8,453 nt of DNA, from assembly GCA_000004985.1 (NCBI GenBank), contig GG739069.1; one strand, given 5' to 3'. The number at the start of each line of letters is the position of its first letter. The stretch's first letter is position 1. The notes under the pieces were generated by a model, which was given only the letters and a program-made list of their open reading frames with translations, was not told where the DNA came from and did no database searches. Position numbers and translations under genes: made by a program. This stretch comes from Naegleria gruberi (taxonomy: Eukaryota). Below, piece after piece: positions 1,778 through 8,453 of this stretch.

Positions 1778-4700
1778 NNNNNNNNNNNNNNNNNNNNNNN
1801 NNNNNNNNNNNNNNNNNNNNNNNNNNNNNNNNNNNNNNNNNNNNNNNNNNNNNNNNNNNNNNNNNNNNNNNNNNNNNNNNNNNNNNNNNNNNNNNNNNNN
1901 NNNNNNNNNNNNNNNNNNNNNNNNNNNNNNNNNNNNNNNNNNNNNNNNNNNNNNNNNNNNNNNNNNNNNNNNNNNNNNNNNNNNNNNNNNNNNNNNNNNN
2001 NNNNNNNNNNNNNNNNNNNNNNNNNNNNNNNNNNNNNNNNNNNNNNNNNNNNNNNNNNNNNNNNNNNNNNNNNNNNNNNNNNNNNNNNNNNNNNNNNNNN
2101 NNNNNNNNNNNNNNNNNNNNNNNNNNNNNNNNNNNNNNNNNNNNNNNNNNNNNNNNNNNNNNNNNNNNNNNNNNNNNNNNNNNNNNNNNNNNNNNNNNNN
2201 NNNNNNNNNNNNNNNNNNNNNNNNNNNNNNNNNNNNNNNNNNNNNNNNNNNNNNNNNNNNNNNNNNNNNNNNNNNNNNNNNNNNNNNNNNNNNNNNNNNN
2301 NNNNNNNNNNNNNNNNNNNNNNNNNNNNNNNNNNNNNNNNNNNNNNNNNNNNNNNNNNNNNNNNNNNNNNNNNNNNNNNNNNNNNNNNNNNNNNNNNNNN
2401 NNNNNNNNNNNNNNNNNNNNNNNNNNNNNNNNNNNNNNNNNNNNNNNNNNNNNNNNNNNNNNNNNNNNNNNNNNNNNNNNNNNNNNNNNNNNNNNNNNNN
2501 NNNNNNNNNNNNNNNNNNNNNNNNNNNNNNNNNNNNNNNNNNNNNNNNNNNNNNNNNNNNNNNNNNNNNNNNNNNNNNNNNNNNNNNNNNNNNNNNNNNN
2601 NNNNNNNNNNNNNNNNNNNNNNNNNNNNNNNNNNNNNNNNNNNNNNNNNNNNNNNNNNNNNNNNNNNNNNNNNNNNNNNNNNNNNNNNNNNNNNNNNNNN
2701 NNNNNNNNNNNNNNNNNNNNNNNNNNNNNNNNNNNNNNNNNNNNNNNNNNNNNNNNNNNNNNNNNNNNNNNNNNNNNNNNNNNNNNNNNNNNNNNNNNNN
2801 NNNNNNNNNNNNNNNNNNNNNNNNNNNNNNNNNNNNNNNNNNNNNNNNNNNNNNNNNNNNNNNNNNNNNNNNNNNNNNNNNNNNNNNNNNNNNNNNNNNN
2901 NNNNNNNNNNNNNNNNNNNNNNNNNNNNNNNNNNNNNNNNNNNNNNNNNNNNNNNNNNNNNNNNNNNNNNNNNNNNNNNNNNNNNNNNNNNNNNNNNNNN
3001 NNNNNNNNNNNNNNNNNNNNNNNNNNNNNNNNNNNNNNNNNNNNNNNNNNNNNNNNNNNNNNNNNNNNNNNNNNNNNNNNNNNNNNNNNNNNNNNNNNNN
3101 NNNNNNNNNNNNNNNNNNNNNNNNNNNNNNNNNNNNNNNNNNNNNNNNNNNNNNNNNNNNNNNNNNNNNNNNNNNNNNNNNNNNNNNNNNNNNNNNNNNN
3201 NNNNNNNNNNNNNNNNNNNNNNNNNNNNNNNNNNNNNNNNNNNNNNNNNNNNNNNNNNNNNNNNNNNNNNNNNNNNNNNNNNNNNNNNNNNNNNNNNNNN
3301 NNNNNNNNNNNNNNNNNNNNNNNNNNNNNNNNNNNNNNNNNNNNNNNNNNNNNNNNNNNNNNNNNNNNNNNNNNNNNNNNNNNNNNNNNNNNNNNNNNNN
3401 NNNNNNNNNNNNNNNNNNNNNNNNNNNNNNNNNNNNNNNNNNNNNNNNNNNNNNNNNNNNNNNNNNNNNNNNNNNNNNNNNNNNNNNNNNNNNNNNNNNN
3501 NNNNNNNNNNNNNNNNNNNNNNNNNNNNNNNNNNNNNNNNNNNNNNNNNNNNNNNNNNNNNNNNNNNNNNNNNNNNNNNNNNNNNNNNNNNNNNNNNNNN
3601 NNNNNNNNNNNNNNNNNNNNNNNNNNNNNNNNNNNNNNNNNNNNNNNNNNNNNNNNNNNNNNNNNNNNNNNNNNNNNNNNNNNNNNNNNNNNNNNNNNNN
3701 NNNNNNNNNNNNNNNNNNNNNNNNNNNNNNNNNNNNNNNNNNNNNNNNNNNNNNNNNNNNNNNNNNNNNNNNNNNNNNNNNNNNNNNNNNNNNNNNNNNN
3801 NNNNNNNNNNNNNNNNNNNNNNNNNNNNNNNNNNNNNNNNNNNNNNNNNNNNNNNNNNNNNNNNNNNNNNNNNNNNNNNNNNNNNNNNNNNNNNNNNNNN
3901 NNNNNNNNNNNNNNNNNNNNNNNNNNNNNNNNNNNNNNNNNNNNNNNNNNNNNNNNNNNNNNNNNNNNNNNNNNNNNNNNNNNNNNNNNNNNNNNNNNNN
4001 NNNNNNNNNNNNNNNNNNNNNNNNNNNNNNNNNNNNNNNNNNNNNNNNNNNNNNNNNNNNNNNNNNNNNNNNNNNNNNNNNNNNNNNNNNNNNNNNNNNN
4101 NNNNNNNNNNNNNNNNNNNNNNNNNNNNNNNNNNNNNNNNNNNNNNNNNNNNNNNNNNNNNNNNNNNNNNNNNNNNNNNNNNNNNNNNNNNNNNNNNNNN
4201 NNNNNNNNNNNNNNNNNNNNNNNNNNNNNNNNNNNNNNNNNNNNNNNNNNNNNNNNNNNNNNNNNNNNNNNNNNNNNNNNNNNNNNNNNNNNNNNNNNNN
4301 NNNNNNNNNNNNNNNNNNNNNNNNNNNNNNNNNNNNNNNNNNNNNNNNNNNNNNNNNNNNNNNNNNNNNNNNNNNNNNNNNNNNNNNNNNNNNNNNNNNN
4401 NNNNNNNNNNNNNNNNNNNNNNNNNNNNNNNNNNNNNNNNNNNNNNNNNNNNNNNNNNNNNNNNNNNNNNNNNNNNNNNNNNNNNNNNNNNNNNNNNNNN
4501 NNNNNNNNNNNNNNNNNNNNNNNNNNNNNNNNNNNNNNNNNNNNNNNNNNNNNNNNNNNNNNNNNNNNNNNNNNNNNNNNNNNNNNNNNNNNNNNNNNNN
4601 NNNNNNNNNNNNNNNNNNNNNNNNNNNNNNNNNNNNNNNNNNNNNNNNNNNNNNNNNNNNNNNNNNNNNNNNNNNNNNNNNNNNNNNNNNNNNNNNNNNN

Positions 4701-5892
4701 NNNNNNNNNNNNNNNNNNNNNNNNNNNNNNNNNNNNNNNNNNNNNNNNNNNNNNNNNNNNNNNNNNNNNNNNNNNNNNNNNNNNNNNNNNNNNNNNNNNN
4801 NNNNNNNNNNNNNNNNNNNNNNNNNNNNNNNNNNNNNNNNNNNNNNNNNNNNNNNNNNNNNNNNNNNNNNNNNNNNNNNNNNNNNNNNNNNNNNNNNNNN
4901 NNNNNNNNNNNNNNNNNNNNNNNNNNNNNNNNNNNNNNNNNNNNNNNNNNNNNNNNNNNNNNNNNNNNNNNNNNNNNNNNNNNNNNNNNNNNNNNNNNNN
5001 NNNNNNNNNNNNNNNNNNNNNNNNNNNNNNNNNNNNNNNNNNNNNNNNNNNNNNNNNNNNNNNNNNNNNNNNNNNNNNNNNNNNNNNNNNNNNNNNNNNN
5101 NNNNNNNNNNNNNNNNNNNNNNNNNNNNNNNNNNNNNNNNNNNNNNNNNNNNNNNNNNNNNNNNNNNNNNNNNNNNNNNNNNNNNNNNNNNNNNNNNNNN
5201 NNNNNNNNNNNNNNNNNNNNNNNNNNNNNNNNNNNNNNNNNNNNNNNNNNNNNNNNNNNNNNNNNNNNNNNNNNNNNNNNNNNNNNNNNNNNNNNNNNNN
5301 NNNNNNNNNNNNNNNNNNNNNNNNNNNNNNNNNNNNNNNNNNNNNNNNNNNNNNNNNNNNNNNNNNNNNNNNNNNNNNNNNNNNNNNNNNNNNNNNNNNN
5401 NNNNNNNNNNNNNNNNNNNNNNNNNNNNNNNNNNNNNNNNNNNNNNNNNNNNNNNNNNNNNNNNNNNNNNNNNNNNNNNNNNNNNNNNNNNNNNNNNNNN
5501 NNNNNNNNNNNNNNNNNNNNNNNNNNNNNNNNNNNNNNNNNNNNNNNNNNNNNNNNNNNNNNNNNNNNNNNNNNNNNNNNNNNNNNNNNNNNNNNNNNNN
5601 NNNNNNNNNNNNNNNNNNNNNNNNNNNNNNNNNNNNNNNNNNNNNNNNNNNNNNNNNNNNNNNNNNNNNNNNNNNNNNNNNNNNNNNNNNNNNNNNNNNN
5701 NNNNNNNNNNNNNNNNNNNNNNNNNNNNNNNNNNNNNNNNNNNNNNNNNNNNNNNNNNNNNNNNNNNNNNNNNNNNNNNNNNNNNNNNNNNNNNNNNNNN
5801 NNNNNNNNNNNNNNNNNNNNNNNNNNNNNNNNNNNNNNNNNNNNNNNNNNNNNNNNNNNNNNNNNNNNNNNNNNNNNNNNNNNNNNNNNNNN
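1778..5892. other. Run of 4,115 N (assembly gap or masked sequence)
   Basis: The N run is uninterrupted in the sequence as given. The X-filled ORFs 1466-6058 (+) and 1770-5936 (-) in the track are artefacts of it. Confidence 0.99.
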
Positions 5893-5893
5893 G

Positions 5894-6616
5894 CTAATAG
5901 GTGATATGAGAACACAATCAAAAATCCGTCAAGCACTTCACCACGTCGAACAGGGAGCTGCTGAATCTTATACTCCTCTCCTCAAATATCGTCAAGAAGA
6001 TTTACGTGTTTATCAAGTTGCTAAGAAATTGCATACCATGTGGCAAGAAAGCGACTAGGAAAAGCCAATTACATATGATGATATCGAATTTGCCTTCAAC
6101 TTGTACAAAGTACATTGCGAAAATATGAAAATGATGAAGAGTGAATACTCTCTTGAATATACCAAGTTGATGAAGGTTCTCATTAATATTGTTTTGGTAA
6201 ACAGAGAATATTGCAAGGTTGCCAAACAAGTTCTCAATGAATCAACAAAGAAATACAAGAAGGATATTTCATCAATTGAATCGGCAATTGAATCTAAATT
6301 GAAGGAATATGAATCAACTCAAAGTAATCAAGACAAACTTTTAATGCTCAGACTCTCCTCATACACCATTCAATCTATTTCTAAATTAGACTCTGATTTG
6401 GATGCTTATGAAAATATGGTTGTCCAATGTGTGAAATTGATGTATCCAGAAAGATGTATTATCTATGATTTGGACCTTTGTAAAAAACTTCTTTACATTT
6501 GCCGTACTACAACAGCTTCTTCCCTTTTGGAAAAGAGCAAGGAAATTATGGATGTTTCCTCAGTTCACTATGATAGAGAAAAACTCTTCCAACAAGCTAT
6601 TATTAGGGACAATTAA
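5894..6616 (+). CDS. 3' end of an unidentified protein-coding gene, with one in-frame TAG at 6056-6058
   Basis: One frame is open from the gap edge to TAA 6614-6616, apart from a single TAG (...KKLHTMWQESD*EKPITYDDIEFAFNLYKV...). The 185 codons after the TAG are K/E/L-rich and partly coiled-coil-like (SIESAIESKLKEYESTQSNQDKLL). The track's start at 6101 is a TTG called under bacterial rules. I recognise no family. This could be one gene with an in-frame intron or read-through, or a gene disrupted by a nonsense change. Confidence 0.6.
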
Positions 6617-6630
6617 GGTCATCAAATGTA

Positions 6631-6673
6631 GCCCGTCTAGCTCAGTCGGTAGAGCGTCAGACTGTTAATCTGC
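6631..6673 (+). pseudogene. tRNA-like 5' half (anticodon GUU, Asn-type), lacking variable loop, T arm and 3' acceptor strand
   Basis: The sequence parses as GCCCGTC TA GCTC AGTCGGTA GAGC G TCAGA CTGTTAA TCTGC. That is the acceptor 5' strand, a canonical D arm and box A (TAGCTCAGTCGGTAGAGC), and an anticodon stem of 4 bp plus one U:C. The 7-nt loop has U33, GUU and A37. What follows is CAACAAATTTTGAAATGAAAAAAAG, with no GGTTCGA-type T arm and no GACGGGC acceptor complement. Confidence 0.7.
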
Positions 6674-6679
6674 AACAAA

Positions 6680-6683
6680 TTTT
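6680..6683 (+). terminator. Possible minimal Pol III terminator (TTTT) after the tRNA-like half
   Basis: Four Ts lie 7 nt after the anticodon-stem remnant. The run is short and could be chance in AT-rich DNA. Confidence 0.2.
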
Positions 6684-6689
6684 GAAATG

Positions 6690-6696
6690 AAAAAAA
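6690..6696 (-). terminator. Pol III terminator (T7) of the 5S rRNA gene
   Basis: The minus strand reads ...GGTGCTGTAGTC TTTTTTT C. The oligo-T run lies immediately at the 5S 3' end. Confidence 0.8.
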
Positions 6697-6814
6697 GACT
6701 ACAGCACCACAGGTTCCCAAGTTGTCTCCAACCTCAGTACTGATGTGGCTCGACGATGCTTAACTTCTCAAATCGGACGGGATGAGGTGCATTCATCGTG
6801 ATATGGCCGTAGCC
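6696..6814 (-). rRNA. 5S ribosomal RNA gene
   Basis: The minus strand reads GGCTACGGCCATATCACGATGAATGCACCTCATCCCGTCCGATTTGAGAAGTTAAGCATCGTCGAGCCACATCAGTACTGAGGTTGGAGACAACTTGGGAACCTGTGGTGCTGTAGTCT (119 nt). It carries the conserved eukaryotic 5S blocks CGGCCATA, CCCGTCCGAT, GAAGTTAAGC, AGTACT, GGGAA and GGTGCTGTAG. The 5' and 3' ends pair as helix I (GGCTACGG with CTGTAGTC, allowing G-U). A T7 run follows. The exact ends are good to 1-2 nt. Confidence 0.92.
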
Positions 6815-6958
6815 ATTCATTACCTCAAAATGTGAAATATCAGCCCAATTCCAAGTTCTAACAAGGGAAACCTTAGATGCTCACATGACCAACACTTGAG
6901 TTTCTAAGGCTATGAAATCCAATTCAGCAAATTATTAATTTACAAAAATCAAAAAAAA

Positions 6959-7387
6959 ATGTATAATCACTGTCATCAGCACAATGATACGTTTGATCGT
7001 GGTGATGATTGGAGCGAGAATTGTCCCGATTTTGCTCTCCTCTCTCCAACAAACAGTTCATTCAAAAATCTCTCCTCCGATATTATTTGTTATATTGTTT
7101 TTCAATATTTGGATTACAAAACAATTACAAGTTGTTTATTATTGAATAAGGAATATTATGGAAAGATTGCAAATAATAGATTTCTTTTTATTAATATGTA
7201 TAACGAGTTATTTATTAATAAGAGAATTGCATTATCATCAGTGCAACTACCAGTACTATTTAATTGTGTATCTTTCAGTTCAGCAAATAATGAGTTATCC
7301 AGTAATTGTGAGAGAATGCTTTTGCAATCTGGGAGAATGACAGATGAAAAATTGGAATGTATTAGAAAAAAGTGGCAAGAATCAATT
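6959..7387 (+). CDS. F-box-like protein segment (first part of a putative F-box/LRR gene), ends at an in-frame TAG
   Basis: The ATG at 6959 follows an A9 run. The 143 codons include FKNLSSDIICYIVFQYLDYKTITSCLLLNKEYYGKIANNRFLF. This fits a degenerate F-box pattern (L..[DE][IL][IL]..I...L.....[IL]....L.NK..Y.......[FL][FW]), with the usual Pro and Trp replaced. TAG at 7388-7390 follows, and the same frame then reopens. Confidence 0.65.
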
Positions 7388-7390
7388 TAG

Positions 7391-7715
7391 AAAATGACTC
7401 AACGCAGCACTAGTATTAAGAATGAAAAACAACTACTGTTGAATATTATCAAAAAGATTATCAAAGACAGATTGGATATTTTAAAATTCTTTAAAAATGA
7501 ATTGAAAAGTGCACAAATAGGAGATGGAAAAATGAGACCAGCAGTTGAACTGGTCAAGGAAACACAGGACATTATTGAAAAATTGAAAACTTTTGAAGAA
7601 TTATCGTTGAGCTATCCAAGTTCTAATTACTTTCATGAATCGTTTAATAATTATATAATAGAACAACAGGAAGCTTACGAACCAATTGAGTTGAATAATA
7701 TTATTTCCATACGAG
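7391..7715 (+). CDS. Middle segment of the putative F-box/LRR gene (same frame as 6959-7387)
   Basis: The frame is open for 108 codons immediately after the TAG (KMTQRSTSIKNEKQLLLNIIKKIIKDRLDILKFFKNELKSAQ...EPIELNNIISIR). It ends at CGAG|GTTAGT. The track calls it as a separate ORF from the ATG at 7394, only 3 nt after the stop. That is too close for an independent eukaryotic gene. Confidence 0.55.
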
Positions 7716-7760
7716 GTTAGTTTCTTCTTCTTCTTTCAAGTTTGAAAAAATTTTATGTAG
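7716..7760 (+). other. Spliceosomal intron (45 nt, phase 1) in the F-box/LRR gene
   Basis: The donor is GTTAGT, followed by the pyrimidine tract TTTCTTCTTCTTCTTTC, and the acceptor is ATGTAG ending at 7760. I count 11 G/C in 45 nt. The in-frame TAG at 7718-7720 lies inside the donor. Splicing gives ...IISIR-E-NTKSTNDYV... Confidence 0.7.
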
Positions 7761-8453
7761 AAAATACCAAGTCAACCAATGATTATGTACGAAATTCCTG
7801 TTATACTTCTATTTCAATACTAAAATATTTCAAAAATCTTAAATTTCTCTATCTAGCTGGATATTGTGATTTTCAAGAGCCAGTTAAATTGAACAACTTG
7901 AAAGTATTAATTATAAGAACAGGAGTAATGGAAAATTCCATGTTACAATCAATTCTTAACTGCTCATTCCCACAATTGAAACATTTAGAATTATGGTTAG
8001 GGTCACCCTGTCAAATAAGAAGTAAAATGATCGACCTGTCACATTACAATAATGATATTACAGAAAAAAATTTAACAGAACTGCTTTCAGAATCAGATAA
8101 TGGAAAGTATCCAACATTAGAATATTTTGGTCTGAGAAATACTTATAATATTCCACAACTCTTACCACTTATTATGAAATCAAATATTGCAAAAAGAGTT
8201 AGAGTATTGGATTTATCATTATCAGGTTCAATAACAGAAAATGATGCTCTATTTATTGCAGAGCAAATCCAATTACAGAGAAAAGAATTCACATTGTTAG
8301 AATTTGTTGATTTGAGATATAATAATATTCAACTTGAAAATAATCCGAATAGGGATATCGTGATTCAACAAATTGAAGAGGAATTCAACAAAATAGGAAT
8401 TGCAGTTGATGTATCAAAATCTGATTATTGTAGAATGCAGAACATGAAATTGT
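7761..8453 (+). CDS. Leucine-rich-repeat C-terminal region of the F-box/LRR gene, partial (continues past right edge)
   Basis: I checked 230 consecutive codons one by one and found no stop: NTKSTNDYVRNSCYTSISILKYFKNLKFLYLAGYCDFQEPVKLNNLKVLIIRTGVMENSMLQSILNCSFPQLKHLELWLGSP...YPTLEYFGLRNTYNIPQLLPLIMKSNIAKRVRVLDLSLSGSITENDALFIAEQI...LLEFVDLRYNNIQLENN...IGIAVDVSKSDY. LxxLxLxx(N/G) repeats recur. The ORF track omits it because it has no stop in the window. Confidence 0.8.

Follow-up and report, generated by a model that had tools for sequence, protein, structure and literature searches.

We have analysed a stretch of 8,453 nucleotides of Naegleria gruberi DNA (contig GG739069.1 of assembly GCA_000004985.1), referred to here as the window. 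Its left part holds a minus-strand gene (1–720) and a gene start at 1466, and ends at a run of 4,115 Ns (1778–5892) that splits the scaffold. To the right of this gap lies, on the plus strand, the 3′ part of a conserved heterolobosean protein gene without Pfam domains (gene A, 5921–6604). It is followed by 26 nt (6605–6630, +), reaching from the end of the gene A homology to the first base of a tRNA 5′ fragment with the anticodon GUU (Asn), which comprises tRNA positions 1–42 (6631–6672, +). A 23-nt AT-rich spacer (6673–6695) separates the break in the tRNA from the 3′ terminus of an intact-looking 5S rRNA gene on the minus strand (6696–6814). The region upstream of the 5S gene is at the same time the intergenic region (6815–6958) before gene B, an F-box/LRR-like gene (6959–8453, +) with an intron at ~7718–7856.

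The fragment and the base after it (6631–6673, +) read GCCCGTC-TA-GCTC-AGTCGGTA-GAGC-G-TCAGA-CTGTTAA-TCTG-C. This gives the acceptor 5′ strand (GCCCGTC), a D arm that contains box A (TAGCTCAGTCGG) and an anticodon arm with the loop C32-U33-G34-U35-U36-A37-A38; the variable loop, the T arm with box B and the acceptor 3′ strand are all missing from 6631–6672. ARAGORN made no tRNA call in the window. The first-pass annotation of this DNA, made from the letters alone, had suggested a covariance-model search, and we find that the Rfam tRNA model (RF00005), when forced to align at full length, recovers no complete cloverleaf: the score of 25 bits is below the gathering score of 29 bits and a 33-nt insertion takes the place of the T arm. 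When the stretch is cut at 6673 and a 3′-truncated alignment is allowed, the score is 29.7 bits (E 6.8e-5), and the match covers model positions 1–42 of 71, with its 3′ end marked as truncated. A scan of JGI metagenomes with the 35-mer 6638–6672 found it to be identical (35/35) in 14 intact tRNA-Asn(GTT) genes, a resemblance to tRNA far beyond chance. Position 43 is A in all 14 of these genes and C in the window (6673), so the tRNA identity stops at position 42 (6672). The acceptor 5′ strand, D arm, box A and GUU anticodon loop listed in the first-pass annotation are therefore confirmed by direct reading, by the truncated Rfam match and by the 35-mer identity. The tRNA part given there as 43 nt is clean as described but one base shorter, and the U:C pair said to close the anticodon stem is better read as the first base that is not tRNA. 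The fragment is free of obvious decay and, with positions 1–42 clean and the end abrupt, it is a truncated piece of a tRNA gene and not a degraded whole tRNA, again as first proposed. In isolation, its predicted folding is no more stable than that of shuffled sequence (z = −0.34).

On its 5′ side the fragment starts 14 nt past a stop codon (TAA, 6614–6616), the spacing given previously. This stop, and the replacement codons R-D-N before it, are provided by the 26 nt at 6605–6630, which may represent the original 5′ flanking sequence of the tRNA gene. On its 3′ side the fragment runs into CAACAAATTTT. A TTTT is present here (6680–6683, +), although it lies 7 nt past the fragment and not directly after it as the early description implied. 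The same AT-rich spacer also holds the A7 (6689–6695, +) that represents the T7 terminator of the minus-strand 5S gene, and in this setting TTTT is weak evidence for a terminator. No significant similarity to 6673–6695 was found elsewhere in the window.

The missing 3′ half was sought in all sequenced bases of the window, that is, outside the N gap at 1778–5892 (4,115 bases). There is no T-loop motif or box B resembling GGTTCRANNCC downstream of the fragment, and the sole near match in the window, at 8225, is at chance level. A custom search, directed at T arms of five pairs and at acceptor 3′ strands that could pair with GCCCGTC, returned only the reverse complement of the fragment itself. 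An Rfam scan of the whole window at E ≤ 10 picked up, besides the 5S gene and the fragment, only a single chance snoRNA match, and a second copy of the fragment was not found in the window. Upstream of 6631, the coding sequence of gene A extends to 6616 and neither a T arm nor an acceptor 3′ strand is present; a permuted tRNA gene was rejected on these grounds. The earlier statement that no 3′ half lies nearby and that the gene is not permuted thus holds. A functional tRNA gene would be expected to give a complete cloverleaf, a score above gathering as a whole molecule and both box A and box B, and the locus gives none of these three in full. In the absence of box B, T arm and 3′ acceptor strand, the fragment cannot recruit TFIIIC in the normal way, nor can its product fold as a tRNA or be aminoacylated.

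The perfect preservation of positions 1–42, with box A and a textbook anticodon loop, and the T4 run 7 nt downstream could speak for a functional half-tRNA gene, whose product would be either the 5′ half of a split tRNA-Asn joined in trans or a small RNA of ~50 nt ending at TTTT. Split tRNA genes in Nanoarchaeum equitans and permuted ones in Cyanidioschyzon merolae have complementary extensions or a permuted adjacent half, and they are the only genes for the tRNA concerned. The window resembles them in encoding a 5′ half without an adjacent 3′ half; it differs in having no upstream 3′ half and no complementary extension, and where the GC-rich one of the Nanoarchaeum type would follow the 5′ half there is CAACAAATTTT instead, with only 7 AT-rich bases before T4. 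We know of no split site at 42/43 in either of these systems. In addition, neither a B box nor any other Pol III promoter can be recognised, the isolated fragment has no special stability, T4 is fairly often expected by chance in an AT-rich spacer, the fragment is missing from the orthologous loci (see below) and 883 intact tRNA genes are reported for N. gruberi. Together these points make a working half-tRNA gene very improbable. That the fragment has been kept through use, whether as a ~50-nt mimic of a 5′-tRNA half made by Pol III or Pol II or as the 5′ module of a trans-joined tRNA-Asn, we consider extremely improbable; if it were used, such a split or half tRNA gene would be without precedent in the nucleus of a free-living eukaryote, leaving aside the permuted genes of some algae.

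The 14 metagenome tRNA-Asn(GTT) genes are identical to one another and to the window at positions 8–42, and have a different acceptor stem (GCTCCYR). Their carrier contigs (L007–L020) come from freshwater metagenomes, are unrelated and probably of prokaryotic or phage origin, and mostly bear tight clusters of several tRNA genes (Tyr-Gly-Asn, Asn-His-Arg and others). Among these, the clusters on L013 and L016 contain a tRNA-His with the anticodon ATG, and a tRNA with an apparent four-base anticodon is found on L011 (3280–3367). The combination of the acceptor stem and D arm of the window with a GTT anticodon is absent from representative genomes of 185,579 prokaryotic species, and no IMG/VR contig has it either. 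With zero matches in both collections, bacterial contamination or transfer was rejected as the source. The metagenome 35-mer scan contained no Naegleria copies, only intact tRNA-Asn genes. The parent is most naturally taken to be a nuclear tRNA-Asn(GUU) gene of Naegleria, and a tRNA-Lys(UUU) gene with a T34-to-G change is a possible alternative. The first-pass annotation had seen a Lys-type body with G34; the body is equally that of a normal tRNA-Asn(GUU), given the identity of bases 8–42 to the 14 tRNA-Asn genes.

The 5S rRNA gene next to the fragment matches the Rfam model RF00001 over positions 1–120 with 105.4 bits. It runs from 6814 to 6696, convergent with the tRNA fragment and 23 nt from it, and its coordinates match an entry at 6695–6811 of scaffold_382 in Table S1 of PMC3369914, which makes the window very likely the beginning of this small scaffold. 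A protein-database search with the six-frame translations of the 5S gene led, by way of spurious ORFs, to two further Naegleria-type 5S loci, one in N. lovaniensis (L022, 10102–10220) and one in a Logan contig (L023, 374–492); two marine-metagenome contigs (L024, L025) were also found in this search. The 5S gene of the window is 95–96% identical to those of L022 and L023. Two compensatory pair changes (CCACA...TGTGG in the window versus CTGCA...TGCAG in the other two) argue that it is a working gene and, as far as its sequence tells, it looks functional. Directly upstream of the 5S gene is a motif common to N. gruberi and N. lovaniensis, GTAATGAAT (GTAA(A)TGAAT), and an AT-rich, TATA-like stretch lies ~20–27 nt upstream; N. 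gruberi 5S genes have been reported to be preceded by a TATA box (PMC3369914). In N. lovaniensis, the 5′ part of the gene model C9374_006095 (Kelch-repeat protein, P0008; L022 10001–10933) crosses the opposite-strand 5S gene and a run of Ns, and its N-terminus is probably mis-annotated.

Both of these related loci are solo 5S genes, with no tRNA or tRNA fragment beside them, and no similarity to the tRNA fragment of the window was detected in any of the four contigs L022–L025. The similarity of L022 and L023 to the window consists of the 5S gene plus ~6 nt of flank on each side, reaching ~7 nt upstream of 5S in the case of L022. Naegleria 5S genes thus do not carry the tRNA fragment as a conserved appendage. 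These loci bear on whether the fragment belongs to a dispersed element, either as the tRNA-derived head of a SINE-like repeat or as part of a recurrent composite of a tRNA piece and a 5S gene. The number of Pol III genes in N. gruberi is unusually large (924 tDNAs and 279 5S genes), so that something must spread them, and the fragment is sequence-perfect. Nevertheless, the head of a tRNA-derived SINE has A and B boxes, and the B box, part of the usual internal promoter of such elements, is absent here; there is no second copy in the window, the two other Naegleria 5S loci are without a tRNA piece, and the 35-mer scan of metagenomes gave only intact tRNA-Asn genes of other organisms. Nor is there a convincing target-site duplication: around the 5S gene and the fragment, a search for target-site duplications and terminal repeats returned only A-rich matches at chance level. 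We therefore regard a dispersed element as unlikely. An A-rich direct repeat of 12 nt (6685–6696 and 6946–6957) brackets the 5S gene and 131 nt of its upstream region, and an imperfect inverted repeat of 10 nt (6676–6685 and 6825–6834) flanks the 5S gene symmetrically, at a distance of 10 nt on either side. In DNA as AT-rich as this, neither repeat rises above chance level (blastn-short E = 36), and neither is taken for a target-site duplication or a terminal repeat.

Two known arrangements in which tRNA sequence adjoins another small-RNA gene were compared with the window. Acker and co-workers are said to have described, in 2008, dicistronic tRNA-5S rRNA genes in Yarrowia lipolytica, in which a complete tRNA upstream of the 5S gene and on the same strand gives a joint transcript. 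In both organisms tRNA sequence is found within a few tens of bases of a 5S gene and the 5S genes are dispersed. Unlike the Yarrowia case, the tRNA piece of the window is incomplete, has no B box, and lies on the opposite strand, downstream of the 5S gene and past its terminator. In trypanosomatids, which like Naegleria belong to Discoba, the snRNA and 7SL genes have companion tRNA genes or tRNA-like sequences as promoters; these are upstream and divergent, and their A and B boxes are both needed. The likeness to the window is that tRNA-type boxes adjoin another small-RNA gene, and the difference is that the fragment is downstream, convergent and without a B box. Readings of the piece as part of a dicistron, as a promoter or as a half-tRNA gene thus find no support, given its convergent orientation to the 5S gene, the lack of a B box and the two solo Naegleria 5S genes. 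A recognisable TFIIIA has been reported to be missing in N. gruberi (PMC3369914), as in the Yarrowia case.

The flanking protein genes place the fragment in a rearranged region. An N. gruberi 'predicted protein' (P0004) matches the ORF that ends at 6616 with 100% identity, and orthologues of gene A were found in N. fowleri (L001), N. lovaniensis (L002), Willaertia magna (L003) and environmental Naegleria (L004–L006). The homology of gene A to all of them, both in protein and in DNA, stops at 6604–6606, which shows that gene A has been cut short at its 3′ end, 26 nt ahead of the tRNA fragment. In place of some 24 conserved C-terminal codons (ICKESE...PYELERPIL), the window has R-D-N and a stop. 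These ~24 residues are kept in N. fowleri (L001 7119–7194), Willaertia (L003) and environmental Naegleria (L004); the N. lovaniensis contig (L002) ends before this stretch and is without a downstream neighbour. An intron was rejected as the cause of the missing C-terminus, as the stop codon TAA comes before any possible GT, and a tblastn search gave no trace of the C-terminal peptide further downstream in the window. A protein search gave no second N. gruberi paralogue of gene A.

Neither tRNA nor 5S sequence is present at the orthologous loci L001–L006. The downstream neighbour of gene A is Rad21 in N. fowleri and environmental Naegleria, and peptidase M32 in Willaertia; gene B is not its neighbour in the related species. 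Gene B has a single homologue, in N. lovaniensis (L021), and this too is without a neighbouring 5S or tRNA gene; among the species compared, neither flank therefore brought the Pol III sequences along. From the changed neighbours and the empty orthologous loci, we conclude that gene order switches exactly here and that the Pol III sequences are specific, among the species compared, to the N. gruberi arrangement. The comparison of synteny proposed in the first-pass annotation gave no tRNA or 5S gene at L001–L006 and different downstream neighbours in three of the four related loci, and the recombined origin considered there agrees with the rearranged position, as judged from the orthologous loci and the end of the gene A homology. 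The more specific proposal, in which the arrival of the 5S gene cost the tRNA its 3′ half, gains no support; no 3′ half is found beyond the 5S gene, and gene A is truncated as well. Because this truncation is 26 nt before the start of the tRNA, at least two junctions must be involved. On the other side of the gap, the left-side genes of the window show no similarity to kinesin or Ufm1, which flank gene A in relatives; the N run intervenes.

Each of the flanking genes contains a single in-frame TAG (6056–6058 in gene A and 7388–7390 in gene B) with the frame open on both sides, and both TAGs come after a W-Q-E-S-x motif. The corresponding codon in gene A is TCT in N. fowleri and in N. lovaniensis, TCC in environmental Naegleria and GCA (Ala) in Willaertia; in gene B it is the Ser codon TCA in N. 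lovaniensis. Loss of gene function, errors in base calling or read-through of the stop codon could each account for the TAGs. In the NCBI annotation, gene A begins at the next ATG (163 aa). With its C-terminal loss and the TAG at 6056, this copy of gene A may be dead or shortened.

An assembly or cloning chimera, in which case the half-tRNA would not exist as such in the genome, would account for the change of neighbours in a different way. The scaffold is short and has a 4.1-kb N gap, both flanking genes have an in-frame TAG where orthologues have Ser, and 5S and tRNA genes exist in many copies and are easily mis-joined. We nonetheless find a chimera quite unlikely: the sequence from 5893 to 8453 is contiguous without any N, mis-joins at repeats normally need shared sequence and the tRNA and 5S genes share none, and, as gene A is cut 26 nt before the tRNA, two mis-joins within 70 nt would be required.

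The reading that we prefer, with a probability of roughly 0.65, is that the fragment is an inert relic of a tRNA-Asn gene at a rearrangement junction in N. gruberi. As expected of a truncated relic, its homology to tRNA is partial with an abrupt end, and it is absent at the orthologous position (L001–L006 and L021). A tRNA gene would have been broken inside the 3′ strand of the anticodon stem in a lineage-specific rearrangement or insertion, and the same event, or series of events, would have removed the last ~24 codons of gene A and brought what remained of the tRNA gene next to the convergent 5S gene, 23 nt from its 3′ end. The junction may have been made by breakage and end-joining or by ectopic recombination at Pol III genes. 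The intact sequence of the fragment fits either a recent event or selective constraint; under the relic interpretation its unblemished state suggests that the break was fairly recent. The fragment itself appears to be without function. It probably sits in the makeshift 3′ UTR of a truncated and possibly dead gene A, within which it would at most be copied passively.

A variant of this history has no former tRNA gene at the site: the fragment would be filler DNA, derived from a reverse-transcribed tRNA or tRNA fragment and captured during the repair of a double-strand break. The tRNA identity seems to begin exactly at the mature +1 and ends abruptly, and the capture of cDNA at sites of break repair is documented in yeast (discussed in PMC2675101). 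On the other hand, cDNAs of a mature tRNA are expected to begin at the 3′ CCA end and not at position 42, no CCA or other 3′ part is present, and the upstream 26 nt may equally be the native 5′ flank of a tRNA gene. Such filler is, in our estimation, quite improbable.

A relic of a tRNA-Asn gene accords with what is known of the N. gruberi genome, for which 924 tDNAs have been reported in 41 Mb, 883 of them intact and 41 pseudogenes, with 84% solitary (PMC2888827), together with 279 putative 5S genes scattered over many scaffolds (PMC3369914). With so many dispersed Pol III genes, relics of turnover and chance juxtapositions are plausible. From the published counts, we estimate the number of 5S genes with a tDNA end within 25 nt by chance at ~0.3 genome-wide, and one tDNA-5S juxtaposition is therefore unremarkable. 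A literature search, for the sequence itself and for linkage of tRNA and 5S genes in Naegleria, found nothing specific to this arrangement. In common with the tRNA pseudogenes and relics of eukaryotic nuclear genomes (PMC2888827), the fragment has an incomplete cloverleaf and a non-conserved site, and the tDNAs of its genome turn over rapidly. It differs in that pseudogenes called by tRNAscan-SE are usually full-length and degenerate, whereas the fragment is sequence-perfect with a clean cut at 42 and would be missed at 25 bits by a threshold for whole tRNAs. In yeast, tRNA genes are enriched approximately threefold at evolutionary breakpoints and at sites of gene gain (Gordon, Byrne and Wolfe 2009, PMC2675101). 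There, as in the window, a Pol III gene is found where gene order and neighbours have changed; the yeast breakpoint tRNA genes are generally intact, whereas here a broken tRNA adjoins a protein gene shortened at its 3′ end, and the yeast association is a statistic whereas the N. gruberi junction is a single case.

The observation, then, is real and its explanation most likely an ordinary one, the wear of a genome and not a new kind of gene. The locus carries some warnings for annotation: the model of gene A is truncated and possibly that of a dead gene, spurious ORFs are drawn over the 5S gene, and clean tRNA fragments of this kind are overlooked by detectors of whole tRNAs. If the main reading is true, the fragment would be one more relic among the ~1,200 reported dispersed Pol III genes of N. 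gruberi. Its value, although modest, would be that of a dated scar that locates, to the base, a lineage-specific junction beside Pol III genes where a protein gene was cut short at its 3′ side and gene order changed, in keeping with the idea, derived from yeast, that tRNA genes are fragile or recombinogenic.
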